A DNA stretch of 64,000 nt. Origin: Patescibacteria group bacterium (GTDB lineage Bacteria > Patescibacteriota > Patescibacteriia > SG8-24). Shown here one piece after another: positions 6,989 to 63,950 of the stretch. The translations under genes and the position numbers were made by a program. The notes under the pieces were generated by a model. It worked only from the letters and a program-made list of their open reading frames with translations. It was not told where the DNA came from and did no database searches. Each line of letters begins with the position of its first letter. The stretch's first letter is position 1. The stretch lies in assembly GCA_041667185.1 (NCBI GenBank), contig JBAYFM010000008.1, positions 1,714-65,713 of the forward strand. The letters run 5' to 3'.

Positions 6989-7416
6989 GGTTTGACGGGT
7001 ACATTCAGTACAAATAAAATGGACGAAATACTTGATCATTTTGGCGGACCCTTGGGCTCTTAGCTTAATGGGAAGCCGCGGTTGTGCGGCTTGCGCCGAG
7101 AGGTGGCGGCCTTAGCCGCGCATCTGTAGTGTTCAGTCGCTAGCGCGACTAAACTGCGTCATAGAGCACCCGGTTTGACGAGAACATTCAGAATAAATAA
7201 AACGAACGAGATCCTCGATAATTCTGGTGGACCTGGGCCTGTAGCTTAACGGGAAGCCGTGGTTGTGCGGCTTGCGCCGAGAGGTGGCGGCCTTAGCCGC
7301 GCATTCGTAGTGTTCAGTCGCTGGCGCGACTGAACCGCGTCGTAGAGCAGCCGTTTTGACGAGCACTTTCAGAAACTATAAAAGGACGAGATACTTGATC
7401 ATTTTGGCGGACCCTT
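6989..7416 (+). repeat. two tandem ~182-bp units, each carrying a 5' leader plus a tRNA-Ala 5' fragment interrupted by a 91-nt GC-rich hairpin insert (family-1 element)
   Basis: Units start at GGTTTGACG at 6989, 7172 and 7353. tRNA-Ala 5' fragment GGGCTCTTAGCTTAATGG at 7054-7071 (diverged copy 7235-7252). Inserts at 7072-7162 and 7253-7343 (GGAAGCCGCGGTTGTGCGGCTTGCGCCGAGAGGTGGCGGCCTTAGCCGCG...AGTCGCTAGCGCGACT...). The tRNA sequence then resumes with AGAGCACCCGGTTTG (7163-7177) and breaks in the anticodon loop. Confidence 0.85.
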
Positions 7417-14594: not shown

Positions 14595-14737
14595 GTCGAT
14601 GAGTCTTTAGCTGCTTCTATATTATAATTCTATCATAATCAGCCCGGGCGCGTCATTAAGCCGGTCTGACGGTAAAATTAGGCGCGCCCCGTCCGATGGT
14701 TTACTTTTATCCGATATCTGCTTATAATTGGCTTCAT

Positions 14738-17700
14738 ATGGCGAAATTTCATCTACCATCGATCGAAGAGGAGCAACTGAAAAAATGGGACGAAAAAGAC
14801 GTTTTCCGCCAGGTCCTGAACAAGCCGGACCAGGGAAAGTCGTTCGTTTTTTTCGAGGGGCCGCCAACGGCCAACGGCAAGCCGGGCATTCATCATGTGC
14901 TCGCGCGGTCGTTCAAGGACGTCATCCTGCGTTTCCGCACCATGCAGGGACACAAGATCGACCGCAAGGCCGGCTGGGACACGCATGGCCTGCCGGTCGA
15001 ACTCGAGGTCGAGAAACAGCTCGGATTCACGCAGAAGAAACAGATCGAGGAGTTCGGCATCGCCAACTTCAACGCCAAGTGCAAGGAGTCGGTCTGGAAG
15101 TATCTCGACATCTGGCAGCAGATGACGAAGCGCATCGCGTTCTGGGTCGATCTCGAACATCCCTACATCACTTACACCAACGATTACATCGAGTCGCTCT
15201 GGTCGATCATCAAGGAGATCGATCGCAAGGGTTTGTTGTACCAAGGTTATCGCGTGACGCCGCACTGCCCGCGCTGCGTGACTTCGCTGTCATCGCACGA
15301 GTTGGCGCAGGGCTACAAGGATGTCGACGATCAGTCGGTCTACGTGAAGTTTCCGATCGATGCTGCGGCCAAGCGCTACTTCCTCGTCTGGACCACGACG
15401 CCGTGGACGCTGCCGGGCAATGACGCTCTCGCTGTCGGCGCGGCCGTGACCTATGCCGAGGTGAAGATGAAAGCGACGGGCGAGACCTATATTTTGGCTA
15501 AAGACAGGCTTGTCAGTCTCGACGGCGAGTACGATATCTTGTCGGAAAAGACCGGGGAGCAGCTGGTCGGCATCGCGTACCAGCCGCTTTATGACACCGC
15601 CAAGGCGTTCACCGCGGCCGCTGAATCTTCACGTCTCGCGAACGCCTACAAAGTTTATGCGGCTGGTTTCGTTTCGACGACCGACGGCACCGGCATCGTC
15701 CACATCGCGCCGGCGTTCGGCGAGGATGACGCGCGTCTGGGCGAAGCGGCCAAGCTGCCGACTCTGCTCACGGTCGATTCGACCGGCATGATGCTGGCCG
15801 AGGCTCCGGGCAAAGGCAGGTTCATCAAGAAGGCCGACGAGGACGTCAAAGCTGATCTCACCGCGCGCGGCCTGCTTTACAAATCCGAGACCTATCGCCA
15901 CGCCTACCCGTTCTGCTGGCGCTGCGGCACGCCGCTCCTGTATTACGCCAAGAATTCCTGGTACATCCGGATGTCCGAGTTGCGCGAGAAACTGCAACAG
16001 CACAACCAGGCGATCAACTGGGTCCCGGATCACATCCGCGACGGCCGTTTCGGCGAGTGGCTGCGCGAGGTCAAGGATTGGGCGCTGTCCCGTGAGCGTT
16101 ATTGGGGGACGCCGCTGCCGATCTGGCGCTGCGAGTCGTGTCAGGAACGCCTGACCATCGGCGGCATGGAAGAGATGAAGAAGCTCGCGCGTCCGGGCAA
16201 TACTTATTATCTGCAGCGCCACGGCGAGGCCGAGAATAACGTTGCGAACGTGGTGAGCTCGTATCCGGAGCTTAAAGAATGGCATCTGACGGCTCAGGGA
16301 CGCGAACAGGTCCAGGTTGCCGCCAAGGAATTGAAGCAGCATGGCATCGATCTGATTTTCGCCTCCGACCTGCTGCGCACCAAAGAGACCGCCGAGATCA
16401 TCGCCGCGGAGCTTGGCTTGCCGGTCGTTTATGATCCGCGCCTGCGCGAGCTTGGCGTCGGCGAGGCCAACGGCAAAACCATCGCGGAATTCCACGCGCA
16501 ATTCGCGAGCAAACTGGAACGTTTCGACAAGCCGGCCGTCGGCGGCGAGAATCTGCGCGACTGCCGCCGTCGCTTGGTCGCGTTCGTCAAAGAACTGGAA
16601 GCGAAATATTCCGGCCAGCGAATCCTGATCGTGAGCCACGGCGATCCGATCTGGATGCTGGATTCCGGATTCGGCGGCGCGAGCGACGAAGAGACATTGA
16701 CGTGGCGGTATAACGCCGTCGGCGCGTTCAGCGAGTTCCGGCCGGATGGCCTGCCGCGCGACGATCAGGGCCGCATCGATCTGCACCGCCCCTATGTCGA
16801 TGAGGCGGCGCTCGCGTGTCCCAAATGTTCTGGCGCCATGAAACGGTCGACCGAGGTTCTCGATTGCTGGTTCGACTCGGGCGCCATGCCGTTCGCGCAA
16901 TGGCACTACCCCTTCGAGAACGCCGAACGCATCGACCAGGGCCGGAATTTCCCAGCCGACTACATCTCCGAAGCCATCGATCAGACCCGCGGCTGGTTCT
17001 ACACCCTCCTCGCGGTCTCGACCCTGCTCGACAAGCCGACGCCGCCCTACAAGAACGTCATCTGCCTCGGCCACGTGCTCGATGCCAAAGGCCAGAAGAT
17101 GTCCAAGTCCAAGGGCAATGTCGTCGATCCCTGGCTGATGATCTCCAAGTACGGCGCCGACGCCATCCGTTATCATTTCTTCACCGTGAACCAGCCGGGC
17201 GAACCGAAATGTTTCGACGAGAAGTCGCTCGACGAGGTGACGAAGAAAGTTTTCCTGATCCTCTGGAACGTCCTGACTTTCTGGCAGATGTATGCCGGGG
17301 AGAAAGCGCGTGCGACCGACGCATCGCCGGCTTCGCAGAACGAACTCGACCGCTGGATCCTGGCGGAACTGGCCGAACTCGGCTCGCAGCTCACCGGACG
17401 ACTGGAGAGTTACCAGGTCGTCGACGCCTGCCGCAGCCTGGGCGACTTCATCAACAGCCTGTCCACCTGGTACCTGCGCCGCAGCCGCGACCGTTTCAAG
17501 GGCGAGCCGACGGAGCGCCAGGCAGCCGTAGAAACGCTGGGTTACGTGCTTTTGACGCTGTCTCGGCTCATGGCGCCGTTCACGCCGTTCTTGGCCGAGG
17601 CACTGTACGCCGAGGTTGGCGGGCCGCTGGCTTCGGTCCACTTGGACGCGTGGCCGACGCTGAAGTCGCTTGAAGACGCGACCTTGCGCACCAAGATGGA

Positions 17701-18187
17701 GTTCGTGCGCCAGGCCGCTTCGCTCGGACTCGAGAAGCGCGCTGTCGCCGGCATTCCGGTGCGCCAGGCACTCGCCAAAGCGACGGTCCGTTCGGTCCAG
17801 GTTTTCGACCAGTGGATGAAAGAGATCGTGGCCGTGGAACTCAACGTCGAAGCGGTCGAGTCCGAGGTGATCAAGGAGGCGAAAGATGCCGCGGTCGAAC
17901 TCGACACCAACATCACGCCGGAACTCCGCCGCAAAGGCGCGGTCCGCGAACTCGTCCGCAACATCAACGACCTGCGCAAGACCGCTGGACTCACGGTGCA
18001 TGATCGCATCGTCTTGAATTGGAATGCCACCGGCGAATTCTGGCCGCAGGTCTTTGCCGAACATCGCGAGAGCTTGCTCAAAGACGTGCTGGCCGCGGAT
18101 ATCGCGGTCGGTTCCTCTGGCGAACTCGGCAACCGCGAGCTCGAGGTCGCCGGCGAGAAGGTCTGGCTCGGCATCAATAAAGTCTGA
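14738..18187 (+). CDS. ileS: isoleucyl-tRNA synthetase (type 2) with an inserted histidine-phosphatase (PGAM-like) domain
   Basis: EGPPTANGKPGIHH (HIGH class I), KMSKSKGN, editing/CP1 region, Zn knuckles CESC...CPKC. About 190 aa between the knuckles (nt ~16195-16775) carry RHGEAE, SDLLRTKETA and IVSHGD motifs of the histidine phosphatase superfamily. Start at MAKFHLPS (14738), with TATAAT 8 nt upstream. Confidence 0.9.
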   Translation: MAKFHLPSIEEEQLKKWDEKDVFRQVLNKPDQGKSFVFFEGPPTANGKPGIHHVLARSFKDVILRFRTMQGHKIDRKAGWDTHGLPVELEVEKQLGFTQKKQIEEFGIANFNAKCKESVWKYLDIWQQMTKRIAFWVDLEHPYITYTNDYIESLWSIIKEIDRKGLLYQGYRVTPHCPRCVTSLSSHELAQGYKDVDDQSVYVKFPIDAAAKRYFLVWTTTPWTLPGNDALAVGAAVTYAEVKMKATGETYILAKDRLVSLDGEYDILSEKTGEQLVGIAYQPLYDTAKAFTAAAESSRLANAYKVYAAGFVSTTDGTGIVHIAPAFGEDDARLGEAAKLPTLLTVDSTGMMLAEAPGKGRFIKKADEDVKADLTARGLLYKSETYRHAYPFCWRCGTPLLYYAKNSWYIRMSELREKLQQHNQAINWVPDHIRDGRFGEWLREVKDWALSRERYWGTPLPIWRCESCQERLTIGGMEEMKKLARPGNTYYLQRHGEAENNVANVVSSYPELKEWHLTAQGREQVQVAAKELKQHGIDLIFASDLLRTKETAEIIAAELGLPVVYDPRLRELGVGEANGKTIAEFHAQFASKLERFDKPAVGGENLRDCRRRLVAFVKELEAKYSGQRILIVSHGDPIWMLDSGFGGASDEETLTWRYNAVGAFSEFRPDGLPRDDQGRIDLHRPYVDEAALACPKCSGAMKRSTEVLDCWFDSGAMPFAQWHYPFENAERIDQGRNFPADYISEAIDQTRGWFYTLLAVSTLLDKPTPPYKNVICLGHVLDAKGQKMSKSKGNVVDPWLMISKYGADAIRYHFFTVNQPGEPKCFDEKSLDEVTKKVFLILWNVLTFWQMYAGEKARATDASPASQNELDRWILAELAELGSQLTGRLESYQVVDACRSLGDFINSLSTWYLRRSRDRFKGEPTERQAAVETLGYVLLTLSRLMAPFTPFLAEALYAEVGGPLASVHLDAWPTLKSLEDATLRTKMEFVRQAASLGLEKRAVAGIPVRQALAKATVRSVQVFDQWMKEIVAVELNVEAVESEVIKEAKDAAVELDTNITPELRRKGAVRELVRNINDLRKTAGLTVHDRIVLNWNATGEFWPQVFAEHRESLLKDVLAADIAVGSSGELGNRELEVAGEKVWLGINKV

Positions 18188-18300
18188 TAGGCTGAAGGAG
18201 TAGCGGAGTCAGGGAGAGACGGAGTCATGGAAGAACATCGATTCTCCCGCACTCTCACAAACTCCCTGACTCCGTCTCTCCCCAACTCCCATACTTCCGT
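18188..18300. repeat. GGGAG-rich inverted-repeat intergenic element (instance b)
   Basis: GGAGTCAGGGAGAGACGGAGTCA ... CTCCCTGACTCCGTCTCTCCCCAACTCCCA immediately 5' of the ruvA ATG. Confidence 0.65.
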
Positions 18301-19973: not shown

Positions 19974-20260
19974 GTGCGCCCGTAGTACAACGGATAAGCC
20001 CGCTTGATATAATAAGGAAAAGATATGCGGGCTTGCGGCCAGAGGTGGCGGCCTTAGCCGCGTGTCTATAATGTCCGATTGCTGCGCAACCGGACTGAGC
20101 CTAAGCCCGCTTGATATAATAAGGAAAAGATATGCGGGCTTGCGGCCAGAGGTGGCGGCCTTAGCCGCGTGTCTATAATGTCCGATTGCTGCGCAACCGG
20201 ACTGAGCCGTAGAATGCGATCTTTAAAACCCCATCAGTAGACGGAAGTCGTCGATTTTTT
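19974..20260 (+). repeat. tRNA-Arg 5' fragment (acceptor to D-loop), two tandem family-1 hairpin elements (R1, R2), then a short tRNA fragment
   Basis: GTGCGCCCGTAGTACAACGGATA (19974-19996) matches the tRNA-Arg 5' end. R1 19997-20103 and R2 20104-20210 are near-identical (AGCCCGC-ATrich loop-GCGGGCT, TGCGGCCAGAGGTGGCGGCCTTAGCCGCG, GTCCGATTGCTGCGCAACCGGAC). AGAATGCGA (20211-20219) is the tRNA D-stem 3' / anticodon-stem 5' side. Confidence 0.85.
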
Positions 20261-20368: not shown

Positions 20369-20423
20369 AGTTTCCCGCCTTTGGCGGGACCCCGCCTTCC
20401 TCGAAGTAAATATAAGTGGCGGG

Positions 20424-20733
20424 GCAACGGATAAGCCCGCCCCGCACTTCGTGCGGGGACCAGGGCGGGCTTGCGGCCAGAGGTGGCGGCCTCCGCCGCG
20501 TGTTCTTTGTGTCCGGTCGCTGCGCAACCGGACTGGGCCTAAGCCCGCTTGATATAATAAGGAAAAGATATGCGGGCTTGCGGCCAAAAGTAGCGGCCTT
20601 AGCCGCGTGTCCATAATATCCGGTCGTTTAGCGACCGGACTGGGCCATAGAATGCGAGCCTCCGAAGCTTGAGATCCAAGTTCGATTCTTTGCCACCCGC
20701 AGCTTTGGCGGAGGGTGGTTAGCGGGCGCACCA
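20424..20733 (+). pseudogene. disrupted tRNA-Arg copy: D-loop fragment, two family-1 elements (R3, R4), tRNA 3' part with a 28-nt hairpin in the T-stem; no 5' acceptor strand
   Basis: CAACGGATA (20424-20432); R3 20433-20540 (variant with inner hairpin CCCCGCACTTCGTGCGGGG); R4 20541-20646; AGAATGCGAGCCTCCGAAGCTTGAGATCCAAGTTCGATTCTT (20647-20690); 28-nt hairpin TGCCACCCGCAGCTTTGGCGGAGGGTGG (20691-20718); TAGCGGGCGCACCA (20719-20733). Confidence 0.75.
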
Positions 20734-20861
20734 CCCCACGTCGCTCAAACTGCGGTTTGAGCTATGTGGGGTTGTAAGTATTGTTCTGACAGTCACGGAG
20801 ACTATAAAAGAAAAAACAGCGGCCACAAGGCTGCTGTTTTAGTTTGATTTGATCTCGTCGG

Positions 20862-32099: not shown

Positions 32100-32230
32100 G
32101 GAGGCGGGAGAACCGGAGTATATTCCGCGGCCTATGATGCAGTCTGACCGCGAAGCGGGCGGACAGTTACAAATTCGCGGCTAAGGCCGCCACTTCTCGG
32201 CGCAACCCGCATGACCGCGGGTTACAAAAA
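32100..32230 (-). repeat. orphan copy of the family-1 GC-rich hairpin element (minus-strand orientation)
   Basis: Reverse complement reads TAACCCGCGGTCATGCGGGTTGCGCCGAGAAGTGGCGGCCTTAGCCGCGAATTTGTAACTGTCCGCCCGCTTCGCGGTCAGACTGCATCAT. This is collinear with the tRNA-Ala inserts (core TGCGCCGAGA[G/A]GTGGCGGCCTTAGCCGCG identical). The neighbouring TCTCCCGCCTCCGGGCGGGACCCCGCC is also shared with 20371-20400. Confidence 0.8.
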
Positions 32231-32260
32231 AGCCGCCCGTGTTCGGGCGGCAAGCGATCG

Positions 32261-36521: not shown

Positions 36522-36678
36522 AGGCGTGGGAGTGTTTACCTATATTAGAGCGAATGGCGATTTGAGGCAATATGGCGGAAATAAGCCCGAAACGGCTGCC
36601 CAAAAAGACGCAAACGCCGCGTCCTCGTCTGGGGACTTCGCGGTCCGGCAGCCCCGTATTTTTAGGCGTTAAAGATCA

Positions 36679-36707
36679 TTGACAAAATAGCGTTTTTGCG
36701 CTAGGTT
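36679..36707 (+). promoter_or_regulatory. putative sigma70-type promoter of paralog A (duplicated at 37931-37959)
   Basis: TTGACA (36679-36684), 17-nt spacer, TAGGTT (36702-36707). The same TTGACAAAAT context is duplicated upstream of paralog B. Confidence 0.4.
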
Positions 36708-36795
36708 TTCAGCACAAGTGTTCTTTTTATGGCAGGCCTCAAGTATGCCTAATGACAGGCGTACAGGGGGTAAGCCAAAAACAAGGAGTCAGGTC

Positions 36796-37809
36796 ATGGT
36801 CCAGAAGAAGAGTGAGTTCGTCAGTGCCGCCGGCACCACCTTTGAGATCATCCAGAAGCTCTCCGGAGCCGTCCGCGACCTCGGCGGGTCGGATGATCAC
36901 CTCCGTCGGATCCTCTCCGACGAGGAGCTTCGTCGCGAGATCGCCAAGCTGCTCGTTGCGGGTACTTGTCGCAAAACCCTTGGTGACATGCTCAAGGCCT
37001 GCGGCAATGACTGGGCGAACTCCGCCATTACCGAGGAACATTTCCCGGTGAAGCCCGAACTCTTCACTGTGGCCGGCACCAAGGTCTTTCACTTCAACCG
37101 AATCATGACCACGAAGGAGGTCGAGGCGGCCATCAGGGCCAAGGGGTACGAGCCAGCCTCGATCGAGACTCTCCTCGCCTACGGCGTGGAGAATCCCAGA
37201 GAGCAGCGGAAGCACCCCATCGTCGCCCTCGGCTCCTCCTGGGTGCATCCCGGCGGCAGCCGTGAGGTCCCTTGTCTGTGCGAGTACGACCGCAAGCGGC
37301 AACTTCGCCTGTGGTATGCCAACCCCAAGAACTATTGGTGCGAGGACTACTGTTTCCTCGCCTCCCGCAAGTCCAGCATGTTGTTCGTCGCGGACCCCCA
37401 GCTCAATGTCTTCGATCAGATGATCGAAGACTGCAAGTTTGTTGATGTCGACCACGACATCAACGAGCAGAACTTTCCACTCGCCGGCCCGGTCGTAGAC
37501 GTGTCAGACATGCTGCTGGTCAGCCAGAAAGATTTTGGCAGCCAGGGCAAAACCTTCGCTCAGATTAAGACCTTTATCGACAGCGAGGGTTATCGTTGCG
37601 CGACTCTAGCCGAGCTGATTGACTACGCTAAGGCGAAGTGGGACGACAAGGATGCAGTCATCGCTCTCGGCTCCTTCTGGGTGGATCAGCATGGTCATCG
37701 TGTCGTACCGCGGCTGTATAGGGGTGTTCATGGTCCCGGGCTAGATCTGCTGGATCGTCTTGATGACTTGTCGGGTATTTCATACTCGTTCCTCGTCGTC
37801 CGCAAGTAA
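36796..37809 (+). CDS. hypothetical protein, paralog A (337 aa; two copies of an unknown ~90-aa domain)
   Basis: MVQKKSEFVSAAGTTFEIIQKLSGAVRDLGGSDDHLRRILSDEELRREIA N-terminus, about 85% identical to paralog B. Internal repeats (...GYEPASIETLLAYG...VALGSSWVHPGGSREVP / ...GYRCATLAELIDYAKAKW...IALGSFWVDQHGHRVVP). Ends FLVVRK. SD AAGGAG 8 nt upstream. Confidence 0.6.
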   Translation: MVQKKSEFVSAAGTTFEIIQKLSGAVRDLGGSDDHLRRILSDEELRREIAKLLVAGTCRKTLGDMLKACGNDWANSAITEEHFPVKPELFTVAGTKVFHFNRIMTTKEVEAAIRAKGYEPASIETLLAYGVENPREQRKHPIVALGSSWVHPGGSREVPCLCEYDRKRQLRLWYANPKNYWCEDYCFLASRKSSMLFVADPQLNVFDQMIEDCKFVDVDHDINEQNFPLAGPVVDVSDMLLVSQKDFGSQGKTFAQIKTFIDSEGYRCATLAELIDYAKAKWDDKDAVIALGSFWVDQHGHRVVPRLYRGVHGPGLDLLDRLDDLSGISYSFLVVRK

Positions 37810-38047
37810 CTCTCGAATCCTTTCGGCCCATACCACGTCGTGGTGCGGGCCGATTTTTTTATACTGATGTTTGCGGCTAAGACGACAACCGGCGGCTACG
37901 GCTGCGGACAGTAGAGTCTGGAAAAGATCATTGACAAAATCGCCTATTTATGCGATTGTTTCGGCACAAGTGTTCTTTTCATGACAGTCCCTAGGTTCGT
38001 CTGATGTCAGACGTATAAGGGGTAAACCATAAACAAGGAGTCAGGTC

Positions 38048-38611
38048 ATGGTCCAGAAGAAGAGCGAGTCCGTCTTTGCCGTCGGCACCACCTTTGAGAT
38101 CATCGTGAAGCTCTCCGGAGCCGTCCGCGACCTCGGCGGGTCGGATGATCACCTCCGCCGGATCCTCTCCGATGAGAAGCTCCGTCGCGAGATCGCTGGG
38201 CTGCTGGTCGGTAAGTCCCTCGCCGAGATGATCGCCAAGTGCAAGTTCAGCTACGTTAACCCCGTCATCGACGAGCAGAACCTTCTGCTCGCCGGACCGG
38301 TCGCGGATATATCGGACATGCTGGTTGTCAGCCAGAAGGATCTTGGCGGTCAGGATATGACCACTGCCGCAGTCGAGGCTGCCATTGACTGTATGGGTTA
38401 CCGTCCTGCGTCCCTCGTCGAACAGCTCGTCTATGCCAAGGCGAAGTGGAACGGTAAGGACCACGTGAACGCTTGGGTGGAATCGCATAACCAACGCTAC
38501 ATCTCGAGTCTGTCCGGGGATGGCGCCGGCGACCGCGAGTTGACCTTGTTCCGAATCGTATCTGGGTTCTGCTGGTTCGGTGACATTCGTTTTCTCGTCG
38601 TTCGCAAGTAA
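38048..38611 (+). CDS. hypothetical protein, paralog B (187 aa; one copy of the unknown domain)
   Basis: Same N-terminal 55 aa and C-terminal FLVVRK as paralog A. Conserved leader AAACAAGGAGTCAGGTCATG. Hairpin terminator follows. Confidence 0.6.
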   Translation: MVQKKSESVFAVGTTFEIIVKLSGAVRDLGGSDDHLRRILSDEKLRREIAGLLVGKSLAEMIAKCKFSYVNPVIDEQNLLLAGPVADISDMLVVSQKDLGGQDMTTAAVEAAIDCMGYRPASLVEQLVYAKAKWNGKDHVNAWVESHNQRYISSLSGDGAGDRELTLFRIVSGFCWFGDIRFLVVRK

Positions 38612-38818: not shown

Positions 38819-39371
38819 GTCAGGTCGACCGGATGATCGCCCCGCAGTACTGCGGGGAGGAAAGTCTGAACACCTCCCGCATTCATGCGGGAAAAGGGAC
38901 AATCGCTAACGGCGACCGGGAGCAAGCGTCGGAATTTCTTTTCAATAGCCAATTGGCGAAAGAAGTTTCGCGTCCAAGCCCAGGGAGAGTGCAACAGAAA
39001 ATACACCGCCTGCGCCCCGTGATGACGAGCGAAAGCGAGTCATTTTACGGGGCTAGAAGCGTCACCGGCGCAAGCTAGTGCCGACAAGGCAAGGTTGAAA
39101 TCGTGAGGTAAGAGCTCACGCGGGACTGCGGGGCGTGAGCCGTGAAAGCGGCTTTTACGCCCCCACGGACAAGAACCTTCGGGTTCCAATATCTGGCCGC
39201 GCGAGCGGCGCCGTGGAAAACCCTGTCCGGTGCAAGAGCAAGTTTGGTAGCTCGCAGGCCGCAGTCGCAAGGTTGCGGCCAAGGCCGCTGGCAACAGCGG
39301 TCGCAGAGAGATGATCATCGCCTCGCGGTCAAACGCGGGGTACAAAATTCGGCTTACAGGCCGGCCTGACA
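38819..39371 (+). ncRNA. rnpB: RNase P RNA (bacterial type A)
   Basis: GGAGGAAAGTC (P4 5' strand), GTTGAAATCGTGAGGTAAGAGCTCACGC (GGUAAGAGCGCACC-like P10-12 region), and ACAAAATTCGGCTTACAGG (P4 3' strand ACAGAAnnCGGCUUA). 5'/3' ends can pair as P1 (GTCAGG...CCTGAC). Confidence 0.8.
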
Positions 39372-39377
39372 AGAAAA

Positions 39378-42284: not shown

Positions 42285-42430
42285 AAGTGTAGGAGAGTGC
42301 AGGAGTGGGGGAGTGAGGGAGAGACGGAGTCAGGAAGTGGTGGAGAGACGGAGTGGCGGAGTCAGAGAATTACGAAAAAGCGGGGATTGATGTCCCCGCT
42401 TTTTACTTCTTGATGACTCCGTCTCTTCGT
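42285..42430. repeat. GGGAG-rich inverted-repeat element flanking a bidirectional terminator (instance d)
   Basis: Left arm GGAGAGTGCAGGAGTGGGGGAGTGAGGGAGAGACGGAGTCAGGAAGTGGTGGAGAGACGGAGTGGCGGAGTCAG. Centre AAAAAGCGGGGATTGATGTCCCCGCTTTTT (terminator for rnj). Right arm TGACTCCGTCTCTTCGTCTCTCCCTGACTTC. Confidence 0.7.
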
Positions 42431-42443
42431 CTCTCCCTGACTT

Positions 42444-44306
42444 CTACACTTCGATGATGACCGGCAAAACCATCGGCCGGCGCTTGATGGCGTTGAAGAG
42501 GAATTGGCCGATGTCGTTGCGGATCTTGTTCTTGAGGTGTTCCTCGAAGGCCGGCGATTTCTTGTCGGTGTCGGTGAGGATCTTCTTGACGCGGCTGCGG
42601 GCCTTCTCGATCATCTCCTTGTTTTCGCGCATGTAGACGAAGCCGCGCGAGAGGATGTCGGGCGAACCGACGAGTGCGCCGGTCTTCTTATCGATGGTGG
42701 CGATGATGACGAAGATGCCGTCCTCGGCGAGCATGACGCGGTCGCGCAGCACCACCTGGGAGACGTCGCCGACGCCGAGGCCGTCGACCATGACGTAGTC
42801 GGTCATGACACGCTCCTCGGTCAGGCGTCCGCCGCGGGCGTCGAATTCCATGACCTGGCCGTTCTCGGCGACCATGATGCGGTCGCGCGTGATGCCGACC
42901 TCTTCGCCGACGCGGGCGTGTGCTTCGAGCATGAAGCGGTTGCCGTGGATCGGAACGAGATATTGCGGTTTGACCAGCCGCAGCATGAGCTTAAGATCTT
43001 CCTGTTTGGCGTGGCCGCCGGCGTGGACGTCGAGATTCTGGTAGTGGTAGACGGTCGCGCCGTGTTTGACGAGCGTATCCTTGAGCGTCTGGACGGTCCG
43101 CTCGTTGCCCGGCACGACCGAGGACGAGAAGACGAAGCCGTCGCCTGGTTTCACATAGAGGTAGCGGTGTTCGTTGTTGGCCATGCGCATGAGCACGGCG
43201 TTCTTTTCGCCCTGGGCGCCGGTGCAGAGGATGACGATCTTTTCGTCAGGGAGCTTGCCCGCCGCGCCCTCCTCGATGATGGTGCCGGGCTTGATCTGCA
43301 TGTAGCCGAGCTGGTGGGCGATCTCGATGTTGTTGTTCATGCTCCGCCCCTCGATCAGCAGCTTGCGGCCGTATTTTTCGGCGAGCGTGATGATCTGCTG
43401 GGCGCGCGTCAGGAGCGACGAGAAAGTGCCGATGATGATGCGGCCTTTGGCGCTCTGGAAGATGCGTTCGAGCTCGACTGAAACCTGGCGCTCGGAGATC
43501 TGGTGGCCGGGGCTGTCGGCGTTCGTGGAATCGGACATGATGGCAAGCACGCCCTTCGCGCCGAAGGAAGCGATGTGCGCCAGATCAGCCGGCTCATCGT
43601 TCACCGGGGTGAAATCGAATTTGAAATCGCCGGTGTAGAGGATGGTGCCGTACGGCGTGTGGATCGCCGCGCCGAAAGCGTCGGAGATGTTGTGATTGAC
43701 ATGGAACGGCTCGAAGACGAAGTGCCGGCCGAGCGCGATCTTCATATTGTCCTTCACGAGCTGGATCTTGAGCGACTTGGCGTTGCCGAATTCTTCCTGG
43801 CGCTTGCGGATGATGCCGGCCGTGAGCGGAGCGGTGTAGATGACCGGATTGCCGAGGCGGCTGATCGTGAGCGGGATGCCGCCGATGTGGTCCATGTGTC
43901 CGTGGGTCACGATGACGCCGCGGATATTCTGTTCGCGCCCCTTGAGCGAAGAGATGTTGGGGATGATGTAGTCGATGCCTGGCATGCCCTCTTCGGGGAA
44001 CATCATGCCGATATCAATGATGATGATGTCGGCGCCGCATTCGAGCACAGTGCAGTTGCGGCCGATCTCTTCGAGACCGCCCAAAGCGTAGACCTTGAGC
44101 TTGGGAGCCAGGATCTTGGGTTGCGGCTGTCCGGGTTTGCCGTTCATGACGGGCCGGAACTGGGCCTGGACCGGATTGAGCGGCAGCGGTGGAGCCGGAA
44201 GTTTGATCTGCGGCCGACGGATGGAACCCTGCGCGAGCGGGGACGGTCCGTGGCGATGCCCCGGGCGCTGATGTTGCGGCCGGCGCGGCCTGTTATCTGT
44301 TACCAT
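42444..44306 (-). CDS. rnj: ribonuclease J (metallo-beta-lactamase / beta-CASP RNase)
   Basis: VTHGHMDHIGG motif and beta-CASP region. About 70-aa Pro/Arg/Gln-rich N-terminal extension; an internal start (MNGKPGQ) is possible. Confidence 0.85.
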   Translation of the reverse strand: MVTDNRPRRPQHQRPGHRHGPSPLAQGSIRRPQIKLPAPPLPLNPVQAQFRPVMNGKPGQPQPKILAPKLKVYALGGLEEIGRNCTVLECGADIIIIDIGMMFPEEGMPGIDYIIPNISSLKGREQNIRGVIVTHGHMDHIGGIPLTISRLGNPVIYTAPLTAGIIRKRQEEFGNAKSLKIQLVKDNMKIALGRHFVFEPFHVNHNISDAFGAAIHTPYGTILYTGDFKFDFTPVNDEPADLAHIASFGAKGVLAIMSDSTNADSPGHQISERQVSVELERIFQSAKGRIIIGTFSSLLTRAQQIITLAEKYGRKLLIEGRSMNNNIEIAHQLGYMQIKPGTIIEEGAAGKLPDEKIVILCTGAQGEKNAVLMRMANNEHRYLYVKPGDGFVFSSSVVPGNERTVQTLKDTLVKHGATVYHYQNLDVHAGGHAKQEDLKLMLRLVKPQYLVPIHGNRFMLEAHARVGEEVGITRDRIMVAENGQVMEFDARGGRLTEERVMTDYVMVDGLGVGDVSQVVLRDRVMLAEDGIFVIIATIDKKTGALVGSPDILSRGFVYMRENKEMIEKARSRVKKILTDTDKKSPAFEEHLKNKIRNDIGQFLFNAIKRRPMVLPVIIEV

Positions 44307-44764
44307 AATTAAAATGTGTTCGCCGCGGAGAGCCGCAGCCGGAGCGAGAGCACTCCTGATCTATAAGAGTCCCGTTTGCACGGGTGAATATTGGGTTAAT
44401 GTGTTCCTCAACCATCTCTAACGGATACGACCGTTACCGCAGAGGAAAGTGGGAGATGCGGAGGGGATAGTTCGCTATCCGCTTTGCGCCGCTCATTTTC
44501 TTCTGTCCTTATCAGGCAACTGCCTCTATCATTATTATACCATAATGACAGATCCGGTTGTTTGCTGTCGTCCGATACCATCCCACCTAGCTCGAGCCGC
44601 GCTCGAGCGATGTGGGATGGTGCTGCGGGAGGGAGTCCCGCTCGCTTCGACTCGCGGTCCGGGGCGCTGCGCACTGGCGCTTCGCCGGCTCGCGCCTCTC
44701 GCGCCCTTCGACTCCTTATTTATACCAGATGACTGTCGCCGCCCTGTGGGCGGCACCAATCATC

Positions 44765-44850
44765 TGGTGCTGCGGGAGGGAGTCGAACCCTCATGACCTT
44801 GCGATCGCTAGCTCCTGAAGCTAGTGCGTCTGCCATTTCGCCACCGCAGC
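44765..44850 (-). tRNA. tRNA-Leu (anticodon CAG), type II with long variable arm
   Basis: Reverse complement GCUGCGG...CUAGC-UUCAGGA-GCUAG...GAGGG-UUCGACU-CCCUC-CCGCAGC-A-CCA. G37; 86 nt. Confidence 0.85.
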
Positions 44851-45117
44851 GTATATTTTTATTGCGGGAGGGAGTCGGCCTCCCTCGTAAAAGATCTGAA
44901 ATTACTCGGTCGGCCCGGGGCGCCCCTTGGCGCCCGTGCGCCGCTGCGTTGACTTGCGGCGCACCCCTCATGACCTTGCGATCGCTAGCTCCTGAAGCTA
45001 GTGCGTCTGCCATTTGTTTCGCTCGCGTAGAAATTGTAATCGCTCGCGAAACCCCGGGCACGTCTTCGCGCCCGTGCGGCGCTCGCCGGTTCGCGCCGCA
45101 CCCACCGCAGCGAGAAC
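44851..45117 (-). pseudogene. disrupted tRNA-Leu copy carrying two related ~80-nt GC-rich hairpin inserts (family-2) in the D-stem and T-stem
   Basis: In tRNA orientation: GCTGCGGTGG, insert A (plus-strand 45016-45100; GTGCGGCGC-loop-GCGCCGCAC GGGCGCGAAG...), AAATGGCAGACGCACTAGCTTCAGGAGCTAGCGATCGCAAGGTCATGAGGG, insert B (44885-44963; GTGCGCCGC-loop-GCGGCGCAC GGGCGCCAAGGGGCGCCC...), then a degenerate T-stem/acceptor GGGAGGCCGACTCCCTCCCGCA. Confidence 0.75.
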
Positions 45118-45159
45118 TTTTGTCCGTATAATATGCCTGATTTTGGCTGATTTGTCAAG

Positions 45160-45300
45160 TTGGTGGGGGAGGCGGAGAGACGGAGTTGGGGAGAGACGGA
45201 GTCAGGGAGAATATAATAGTTCTGACTCCGTATCTCCGTCACTCCATGACTCTATGACCTCGTATCTTCCTCACTTCCAAACTCTCCTCGTATTGATATA
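45160..45300. repeat. GGGAG-rich element (instance e)
   Basis: GGTGGGGGAGGCGGAGAGACGGAGTTGGGGAGAGACGGAGTCAGGGAGAATATAATAGTTCTGACTCCGTATCTCCGTCACTCCATGACTC... Hairpin GGAGTCAG...CTGACTCC. Confidence 0.65.
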
Positions 45301-56726: not shown

Positions 56727-56801
56727 TGGTCGGCCCGGATGGATTCGAACCATCGACCAACGCCTTATAAGAGCGCTGCTCTACCGCTGAGCTACGGGCC
56801 G
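56727..56801 (-). tRNA. tRNA-Ile (anticodon UAU)
   Basis: Reverse complement CGGCCCG-UA-GCUC-AGCGGUA-GAGC-A-GCGCU-CUUAUAA-GGCGU-UGGUC-GAUGG-UUCGAAU-CCAUC-CGGGCCG-A-CCA. Anticodon loop C-U-UAU-A-A. 75 nt. Confidence 0.75.
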
Positions 56802-57075
56802 AGATGAGTTGTGATCGAAGCGAGACTGTGCTGGTCTGACCGCCAAACGATCAGCCGAGCCTTGTCCCCCGCAGCTTCACCCTTCTTCGCTAAAGCTACG
56901 AAGGGTCTGAGGACTGCCCAGTTTTTTGTCGACGTGCCGAAACAGTTTTTGGGCAGGCCCATCGCAGCTTCAGCGAAGGTGGGGCGGATGGGGAAGCTAC
57001 GGGCCGGTAGGCCGCCAAAATATATCAATCAAGCGGCCTGTTGGCAACGGAGCGCAACGCCAGTATACTGACCCC

Positions 57076-61436: not shown

Positions 61437-61610
61437 GGTGGGCGGCAGAGGAGTCGAACCTCTGACCTTCACAATGTCAATGTGACGCTCTAACGCCCAG
61501 TCCGGTCGTCTTGCGACCGGACACAAGAAATGCGCGGCGGCGGCCGCCACATCTGGCGTCAAGCCCGCCCTGGTCCCCGCGTTCGCGCGGGGCGGGCTTA
61601 ACCAACTGAG
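61437..61610 (-). pseudogene. partial tRNA-Val copy (D-loop to CCA) carrying a 105-nt family-1 element in the D-loop; no 5' acceptor strand
   Basis: In tRNA orientation: CTCAGTTGGTTA, family-1 element (plus-strand 61494-61598; AGCCCGCCCCGCGCGAACGCGGGGACCAGGGCGGGCT TGACGCCAGATGTGGCGGCCGCCGCCGCG...GTCCGGTCGCAAGACGACCGGAC), then TTAGAGCGTCACATTGACATTGTGAAGGTCAGAGGTTCGACTCCTCTGCCGCCCACCA, identical to the intact gene. Confidence 0.8.
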
Positions 61611-61646
61611 TAAAACAAAAAAGCCAGGTTTGACCTGACTTTCTTG

Positions 61647-63699: not shown

Positions 63700-63950
63700 G
63701 AAAAGAACCCCAGCTGAATTTAGCGCAGGGGCGGGGGAGAGTCAACTCGGGGAGTTTGGGAGAGACGGAGTCGGGGAGTGCTGGAGTTCTGAAGTGCGGG
63801 AGACAGAAGGTGCTGGATTCCCGCTTTCGCGGGAATGACAATTAAAGAGAGTGCGGGAGTTAAGTCCGCTTCTTCGCTCCTTCACTTCCCCGCTCCCATA
63901 CTCCTGCGCCTGTGCCCGTTGATTTTCCGCTCAACAAGCCTTATCATGGC
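63700..63950. repeat. GGGAG-rich element cluster (instance g)
   Basis: GGGGCGGGGGAGAGTCAACTCGGGGAGTTTGGGAGAGACGGAGTCGGGGAGTGCTGGAG...GTGCGGGAGACAG...GAGAGTGCGGGAG..., then the pyrimidine complement CTCCTTCACTTCCCCGCTCCCATACTCC. Confidence 0.6.

Follow-up and report, generated by a model that had tools for sequence, protein, structure and literature searches.

The window analysed here, a 64,000-nucleotide (nt) stretch of contig JBAYFM010000008.1 (assembly GCA_041667185.1), comes from a Patescibacteria (Candidate Phyla Radiation, CPR) bacterium which, judged from its RNase J homologs, is related to Candidatus Uhrbacteria. Genomes of the CPR are small and compact, and their tRNA genes are single-copy. 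On the minus strand, the window carries a near full-length, disrupted copy of tRNA-Leu(CAG) (45111 to 44862) that adjoins the intact gene (44850 to 44765) on its upstream side and is interrupted by two structured inserts, A and B, both of which are three-hairpin modules of a repeat that we call family 2 (Table 1). An earlier note on this DNA had described such a disrupted copy next to the intact gene, and all the elements that it described are present. Besides the copy, the region that it delimited (44851-45117) takes in 6 nt of leader and the 11-nt spacer. The same sequence is found, with 100% identity, in the records of the Joint Genome Institute (JGI) and the European Nucleotide Archive (ENA) (L191, L001), and it is therefore not an assembly artefact; neither record holds information on strain-level polymorphism. 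The locus lies within a gene order, SBP_bac_5, tRNA-Leu, RNase J and tryptophanyl-tRNA synthetase (TrpRS), that is conserved in relatives.

Table 1. Features of the tRNA-Leu locus, in tRNA orientation, followed by the family-1 copies elsewhere in the window.
Feature	Position	Strand	Remarks
Sigma-70-like promoter (TTGACA, 17 nt, CATATT/TATTAT)	45130..45158	-	Directly upstream of the disrupted copy
Pseudo-tRNA 5' piece GCTGCGGTGG	45102..45111	-	tRNA positions 1-10 (5' acceptor strand, U8, G9, G10); matches the intact gene's first 10 nt exactly
Insert A, family-2 three-hairpin module, 86 nt	45016..45101	-	Stands in for C11-G12 of the D-stem
tRNA core, 51 nt	44965..45015	-	D-loop, 3' D-stem strand, anticodon arm (CAG), variable arm, 5' T-stem strand GAGGG
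Insert B, family-2 three-hairpin module, 88 nt	44877..44964	-	T-loop; stands in for T54-T55
Pseudo-tRNA 3' piece GACTCCCTCCCGCAA	44862..44876	-	T-loop remainder, 3' T-stem strand, degenerate 3' acceptor strand; 80% repeat match
AT-rich spacer TAAAAATATAC, 11 nt	44851..44861	-	Between pseudo-tRNA and intact tRNA
Intact tRNA-Leu(CAG), CCA encoded	44765..44850	-	ARAGORN; Rfam tRNA model, 55.9 bits
Trailer hairpin	44724..44768	-	Inverted repeat and fold; the intact tRNA's ACCA end is part of its 5' arm; no U-tract; conserved in L002
C-type GC-rich module	44638..44715	-	Outer helix GGGCGC/GCGCCC around a hairpin with loop GAGCCGGCGAA, then a second hairpin; alignment A3
Exact 20-nt copy of the tRNA-Leu 3' end, GACTCCCTCCCGCAGCACCA	44618..44637	-	147 nt downstream of the original; 100% repeat match
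Family-3 nested hairpin (CCCAC..CGCTCGAGC..GCTCGAGCTA..GTGGG)	44577..44621	-	Inverted repeat; begins at the ACCA of the terminal 3' fragment
Family-1 copies	7057-7362
Family-1 copies	19975-20215
Family-1 copies	20420-20740
Family-1 copies	61495-61612	-
Family-1 copies	32125-32240	-

The disrupted copy retains much of the tRNA. Its core matches positions 44788-44838 of the intact gene at 51 of 51 nt (100% identity), in agreement with the roughly 50 nt of identity claimed for it. The presence of two inserts was likewise confirmed, with insert A in the D-stem in place of C11-G12; insert B, however, which had been assigned to the T-stem, lies in the T-loop, because the complete 5' T-stem strand GAGGG precedes it and because it replaces T54-T55. 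Folded as a whole, the 267-nt region is cloverleaf-like, with its D and T arms enlarged by the inserts (-129 kcal/mol, z = -5.2).

The copy (44851-45117) drew no tRNA call from ARAGORN or from the tRNA model of Rfam (local scan to E <= 10), and deleting A and B in silico, with several choices of junction, still yielded no tRNA call. The copy is without C11-G12, T54-T55, the last acceptor pairs, the discriminator base and CCA; its 3' end reads CCGCAATAAAA where the intact gene has CCGCAGCACCA, and it terminates in ..CCCGCAA. We conclude that the copy is not a tRNA and is not restorable by removing the inserts. This conclusion bears on the idea of a working tRNA gene with two introns, in which self-splicing or removal by an archaeal-type endonuclease would give a second tRNA-Leu. 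The inserts do lie in or beside tRNA loops and the anticodon arm is intact, and Patescibacteria are known to carry group I introns, structured RNA-like sequences that interrupt tRNA genes (PMC13011429). However, the introns reported from this phylum occupy the anticodon loop (e.g., 35/36), self-splice and restore the tRNA, and they are far larger than these inserts of 86-88 nt in the D and T arms. No intron of group I or of group II and no ribozyme in Rfam matches the region, even at E <= 10. As in-silico excision fails to restore a tRNA, we regard a two-intron gene as effectively excluded.

Inserts A and B had been described as sharing one architecture, and folding recovers the same three hairpins in both (A, -46.3 kcal/mol, z = -3.2; B, -49.9 kcal/mol, z = -5.5). 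Hairpin 1 has 9 base pairs (bp) and the loop GARCCRGYGA, hairpin 2 has 7 bp and a tetraloop and is followed by a GGGG linker, and hairpin 3 is a stem with an invariant tandem G.A motif (CGAG/CGAG) below an AU-rich loop; the loop of hairpin 1, the linker and the tandem G.A motif are the conserved unpaired features. The sequence formula proposed for the two inserts holds in that A and B differ by compensatory changes, but not in one detail, as helix 2 of insert A reads CGTGCCC, with a G.T wobble, and not CGCGCCC. A search of the window with the proposed motif, GTGCGSCGC..GCGSCGCACGGGCGC, returned exactly 2 occurrences, against 0.00 expected from shuffles.

These helices can be followed beyond the window. 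Alignment A1 comprises five sequences (A, B, one copy from the related genome L004 and two from the metagenome contig L103) and is the basis of the covariance model R1, whose best match is insert A (104 bits) and which matches insert B at 90 bits. Column identity in A1 is 74%, and 96.7% of the cells are paired (82.8 +/- 2.2 in shuffles); 13 of the 24 pairs are changed on both sides. None of 500 shuffles reaches the observed values, and shifting the 3' partners, as a control, lowers pairing to 26-50%. We conclude that the family-2 helices are maintained by compensatory substitutions. Nothing in Rfam matches insert A or B (whole window at gathering and E-value thresholds; local scans with lax filters), and literature searches returned no description of these modules, only the paper on Patescibacteria group I introns and passing mentions of rttR. 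Family 2 is thus a structural family, supported by covariation, that no Rfam model covers.

Inserts of this kind are not unique to the locus, and the relatedness to sequences elsewhere on which the earlier note's reading depended is borne out by copies in L004, L089/L090 and L103. An upstream pseudo-tRNA-Leu in L004 carries a family-2 module with the same fold at the T-loop position of insert B. In contig L103, two copies lie 240 nt apart in intergenic DNA with no tRNA; they have no similarity to each other outside the module edges, which delimits the module as a bounded unit of about 88-90 nt. The genome represented by L089/L090 (Uhrbacteria RIFCSPHIGHO2_02_FULL_60_10) has an R1 match of 40 bits, directly next to a tRNA-Leu 3' fragment and in the orientation opposite to that of the tRNA. 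Family-2 copies thus number two in the 64-kb window and two in the 4-kb L103 contig, with a single copy in L004 and another in L089. Identity is 65% between A and B and lowest, at 56%, between insert B and the L004 copy; since these last two share a site and are yet so different, separate insertions fit better than one inherited insert, and the modules at the shared T-loop site are probably not simple orthologs. Because copies are found in a D-stem, in T-loops, inverted beside a tRNA (L089/L090) and in intergenic DNA away from tRNAs (L103), we argue that the modules are placed at the DNA level.

Relatives also indicate how labile the locus is. No copies or modules are found in the tRNA-Leu region of L193 (RNase J identity 77%), which is 351 nt long, and the region is equally bare in L006 (77%) and L091 (84%). 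The closest relative, L002 (91%), has the downstream unit only and lacks the upstream copy, L004 (82%) has the upstream copy only, and L009 (74%) has both, while L089 (81%) holds 1.6 kb with several fragments, including several 3' fragments in a row on the downstream side of the tRNA. At tRNA-Leu, L003 and L088 (82-83%) have a GC-rich structured leader of another kind. Three of the related contigs (L008, L009 and L016) were supplied by a scan of genome contigs with RNase J, in which identity was at most 74% among the matches listed. Exactly one unit, 267 bp long and with the 10-bp repeat GCTGCGGTGG at its borders, separates the window from L002. Because relatives span the range from bare to heavily loaded tRNA-Leu loci, we consider the additions to be dispensable and turning over.

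Two further structures were seen at the tRNA-Leu loci of these relatives. The GC-rich leader (GTGAAGGCGAGCG..stem..ARAGTGAGGGYGAG..CCCGAACG..stem..GGAAGCG) stands directly before tRNA-Leu in L003 (3470-3585) and L088 (2440-2570) and before the pseudo-tRNA-Leu in L004 (3090-3228), and its stems covary between the three genomes. The D-loop of the L004 pseudo-tRNA-Leu has a perfect 20-nt palindrome, CCTGCCTGCCGGCAGGCAGG, cleanly inserted (L004 3249-3268).

No promoter-like site in tRNA orientation other than the one in Table 1, read from 45158 to 45130, precedes the tRNA-Leu unit; the minus strand has another match farther upstream (45242-45213). The Table 1 promoter matches the tRNA promoter of L002, so that the same promoter adjoins the intact gene in L002 and the pseudo-copy in the window. 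The stretch from the copy to the intact gene has neither a promoter-like site in tRNA orientation nor a terminator-like site. Since the sole promoter-like site precedes the copy and no terminator-like site is seen, the copy is probably transcribed together with the functional tRNA, as its leader.

On balance, we lean towards reading the locus as a pseudo-tRNA in tandem that was colonised by a structure-dependent repeat element of low copy number, that is, as an RtT-like tRNA-linked repeat. Under this reading, a promoter-proximal tandem duplicate of the single-copy tRNA-Leu(CAG) gene would have been inactivated and kept only as a passenger. Recombination or slippage between short direct repeats derived from the tRNA could have produced the duplicate and could also remove it again. 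The modules would have entered the exposed loops of tRNA-like hairpins at the DNA level, through structure-dependent insertion or recombination, and would be tolerated because the intact downstream copy supplies the function. Transcription from the tRNA promoter would then yield the pseudo-tRNA as a structured leader of roughly 280 nt, which would be set free when RNase P cuts at the 5' end of the intact tRNA. Such an outcome resembles the RtT RNA of the Escherichia coli tyrT operon, and we assume no function for the released RNA. The presence of several other hairpin repeat families around the tRNAs of the host genome counts for the repeat-element reading.

A comparison with known mobile repeats shows both why this reading is attractive and where it is strained. 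Like miniature inverted-repeat transposable elements (MITEs), repetitive extragenic palindromes and bacterial interspersed mosaic elements (REP/BIME) and the palindromes derived from IS200/IS605 insertion sequences, family 2 consists of discrete non-coding hairpin units of ~90 nt that are repeated within and between related genomes, occur in both orientations and in intergenic DNA, and keep their structure while the sequence drifts. Unlike these, it has neither terminal inverted repeats nor a target-site duplication: the two ends of the module (GGGTGCG.. and ..CGAGCCGGAG or ..GCGAAAC) do not form inverted repeats, and the flanks show small deletions (CG, TT) instead of a duplication. The left flanks (GGTGG, GAGGG, GAGGG, AGCGG, TGCGG and GAGGGG) are G-rich and alike, and are not separable from the first bases of the module itself. 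No cognate transposase was seen in the window either. A search of its open reading frames (ORFs) against Pfam (about 30 scanned and precomputed Pfam lists for the rest, roughly 45 in total) gave no transposase, integrase or reverse transcriptase, and none of the roughly 45 ORFs encodes an HUH/Y1 transposase (TnpA or the REP-associated RAYT).

The copy number observed is also very low for a mobile repeat; the window has two copies, both inside the pseudo-tRNA. Self-BLAST of the window with the inserts, together with R1, found no family-2 copy beyond A and B except for a distantly similar module downstream of the intact tRNA, and about 120 kb of related genomes contain none outside the tRNA-Leu loci. 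When 241 million metagenome records were scanned with a strict pattern, L103 alone gave a genuine match; the collection evidently lacks the contigs of the window and of L004, so that the true frequency of the module is underestimated. The scan returned 99 stretches, 98 of which were rejected as chance matches in GC-rich coding DNA that failed the check for hairpin complementarity. In addition, three observations would fit selection at the RNA level. Within the helices, the ratio of G.U pairs to A.C mismatches is 5 to 1 when the tRNA-sense strand is read; a cloverleaf with expanded D and T arms is formed in both the window and L004; and the complete identity of the 51-nt core could reflect selection instead of a recent duplication or gene conversion. 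The low copy number, the lack of terminal inverted repeats and of a target-site duplication, the absence of mobility genes from the window and these three observations weigh against a colonised passenger.

The last three observations would also fit a copy that is a functional, tRNA-scaffolded non-coding RNA, with the tRNA frame as a folding and processing scaffold and the family-2 modules as its active, protein-binding or regulatory parts, freed by tRNA processing enzymes as has been proposed for the E. coli RtT RNA. The compensatory changes that keep the helices, the conservation of the GARCCRGYGA loop and the tandem G.A motif, the fact that the inserts of two genomes keep to the D and T arms, and the place of the copy right behind the tRNA promoter all favour such an RNA. 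We nevertheless consider it unlikely, given that the locus is bare in three relatives (L193, L006 and L091) and that the closest relative lacks the upstream copy. Moreover, in L089 the module lies antisense to the tRNA and in L103 it stands apart from any tRNA, A and B are no more than 65% identical to each other, and no Rfam family matches. A more specific form of the proposal, in which family 2 would be an undescribed functional RNA domain of Uhrbacteria-like Patescibacteria, carried on a tRNA-Leu scaffold, expressed from the tRNA promoter, released by RNase P and acting as a CPR analogue of RtT in a regulatory or protein-binding role, with the GARCCRGYGA loop and the tandem G.A motif as recognition elements, appears more doubtful still. 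Engineered 'tRNA scaffolds' exist, and a tRNA-scaffolded family-2 RNA would be their natural counterpart.

The region downstream of the intact tRNA is extremely structured (z = -7.3) and holds an additional insert-bearing tRNA-Leu 3' fragment (44618-44715) that the earlier note did not list. Its C-type module is distantly similar to family 2, with weak R1 matches of 12.7-15.2 bits, of which that in the window has 12.7. Both the C-type module and the 3' fragment are conserved in L002 (91% RNase J identity) and in the distant L008 (70%), with compensatory changes in the outer helix (GGGCGC/GCGCCC versus GGGTGC/GCACCC) and with the inner hairpin exchanged throughout. The 3' fragment of L008 tracks the tRNA 3' end of its own genome (CCCGCGGCACCA; in the window, CCCGCAGCACCA), while that of L002 is one base off its own tRNA. 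The family-3 hairpin that follows also occurs after the terminal ACCA of a tRNA-Arg fragment in the window (around 20735-20770, plus strand) and of a tRNA-Leu fragment in L089/L090; it may represent an ancestral tRNA trailer or the end of an element. Its general pattern is CCCAC..CGCTCRARC..GYTYGAGCTA..GTGGG, with compensatory changes in the inner stem, and the L089 copy lies at ~1845-1885.

This arrangement raises the possibility that the partial copies are duplicated attachment sites, which would have arisen when now-miniature integrative elements with tRNA-Leu as their target integrated site-specifically and brought a replacement tRNA part, with the hairpin modules as interior remnants similar to those of a cis-mobilizable element (CIME). 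An exact direct repeat of the tRNA 3' end flanks a short segment downstream of the intact gene, and its exactness over 20 nt and its spacing of 147 bp are as expected for an element integrated at a tRNA 3' end. Relative to L002, the upstream unit is an insertion or deletion of 267 bp with a 10-bp tRNA-derived repeat at its borders, and the series of 3' fragments in L089 and the family-3 hairpin shared by the Leu and Arg loci point in the same direction. However, the downstream segment is only 127 bp long and the units in general only 127-267 bp, a search of the window and of the neighbouring genes of relatives found no recombinase or integrase, and viral contigs gave zero matches to any of four patterns (family 2, family 1, C-type and family 3). 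The copy studied here is upstream and near-complete, and the inserts in the D-stem and T-loop within this one copy, as well as the L103 copies without any tRNA repeat, would be left unexplained. We therefore regard attachment-site duplication as improbable.

Further along the same strand, two elements were noted in front of RNase J. The motif GCATCYCCCACTTTCCTC (44440-44459, minus strand) in the RNase J 5' region is conserved in L002, L003, L004 and L088 and resembles the 3' end of 16S rRNA, and an extended -10 element, TGGTATAAT (44534-44542, minus strand), lies inside a hairpin upstream of this anti-Shine-Dalgarno-like motif. Together they suggest a possible autoregulatory leader, with the motif acting as an anti-Shine-Dalgarno mimic.

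To place the colonised pseudo-tRNA among known tRNA-linked repeats, we compared it with the tyrT-tyrV region of E. coli K-12 (L192, 1286000-1288200), read directly. Each RtT/178-bp repeat there is the 3' third of tRNA-Tyr, split in the T-loop: the unit reads ..AAGGTTCGA (also ..CTTCGACCAAGGTTCGA), followed by a GC-rich hairpin insert of ~66 nt and then by ATCCTTCCCCCACCACCA, and the tyrT-tyrV spacer also carries such a unit. The E. coli rttR units are co-transcribed with the tRNA and released by processing, as summarised from the literature in 10.1101/2024.07.17.603846. Insert B and the downstream Leu unit share with RtT (RF00391) the main elements of this plan, namely part of the adjacent tRNA repeated in tandem with the intact gene and a GC-rich insert in the T-loop. 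The downstream unit (44621-44731) even matches the RtT model over its full length, albeit below threshold (19.2 bits against a gathering score of 45), but its ortholog in L008 gives no match at E <= 10. RtT does not match inserts A and B or the upstream copy, and R1 finds nothing in the E. coli repeats. The upstream Leu copy also differs in standing upstream of the intact tRNA, in being nearly full-length, in having two inserts (D-stem and T-loop), in the unrelated family to which its modules belong and in its host, a CPR bacterium and not an enterobacterium. While the E. coli unit ends in the tRNA 3' acceptor strand and CCA, the upstream copy does not, and only the fragment at 44618-44637 does. 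Judged on these sequences, membership in the RtT family is not supported, and the tyrT-tyrV repeats are the closest known architecture.

Partial copies are not limited to tRNA-Leu, as all five tRNA species in the window (Ala, Arg, Leu, Ile and Val) have them nearby, most with structured hairpin modules. Another three-hairpin element of ~100 nt, family 1, distinct from family 2, is found at the Ala, Arg and Val loci. The window has 8 copies of it, of which 7 occupy one and the same D-loop position in partial copies of the tRNAs for Ala, Arg and Val and 1 is free-standing after a terminator. The earlier note was thus correct to assign the Leu inserts to a separate family, but not to count Leu as the third tRNA species with insert-bearing copies, as Ala, Arg and Val already carry them; Ile has a short 5' fragment. 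This 11-nt copy of the tRNA-Ile 5' end, GGCCCGTAGCT (56995-57005, minus strand), lies about 190 nt upstream of tRNA-Ile(TAT) (56727-56801) and is followed by GC-rich structured sequence; the TAT anticodon call is unusual for a bacterium. Family 1 comprises a P1 with a variable tip, an invariant GCGGC-CTTA-GCCGC and a covarying P3. NTA triplets (ATA, TTA, GTA) on both of its sides resemble a 3-bp target-site duplication, and with 8 copies in 64 kb it is more MITE-like than the co-resident family 2. Its tRNA-Ala copies form two tandem units of ~181 nt that end at position 35/36 of the anticodon loop. In the downstream tRNA-Arg copy, a 28-nt hairpin is cleanly inserted between TTCGATTCTT and TTAGCGG (20694-20721, plus strand).

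Structured or repeated sequence is also found away from the partial tRNA copies. Long imperfect hairpins of GGAGAGACGGAGTC-type units lie at 18193-18291, 42298-42444, 45166-45260 and 63749-63810, one of them directly upstream of the tRNA-Leu promoter, and they yield spurious weak microRNA matches in Rfam. The RNase P RNA (bacterial type A, 148 bits; 38821-39372, plus strand) is 552 nt long, compared with 367 positions in the model, and its expansions (55 nt for 3, roughly 60 extra nt in P12 and 86 nt for 16) do not match the family-2 model. Upstream of its gene are two pairs of repeats (36671-36956 and 37923-38208, 86%; 37418-37652 and 38226-38460, 70%) that overlap ORFs of 337 and 187 amino acids without a Pfam match. 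An ORF for a class I aminoacyl-tRNA synthetase (14696-18187, plus strand; 1163 amino acids; tRNA-synt_1, Anticodon_1) has a complete His_Phos_1 domain inserted at residues 505-671.

Our findings show that the tyrT/RtT arrangement of E. coli, long known and poorly understood, has counterparts in a very distant phylum. Describing RtT as a tRNA fragment split in the T-loop may help in comparing tRNA-linked repeats across phyla, and such comparisons offer a route to the origin and possible role of these repeats. The analysis also identifies candidate elements that target tRNA loops, at loci which annotation pipelines will miss or misread. Should the family-2 modules prove to be functional RNAs, they would constitute a new class of tRNA-scaffolded non-coding RNA.

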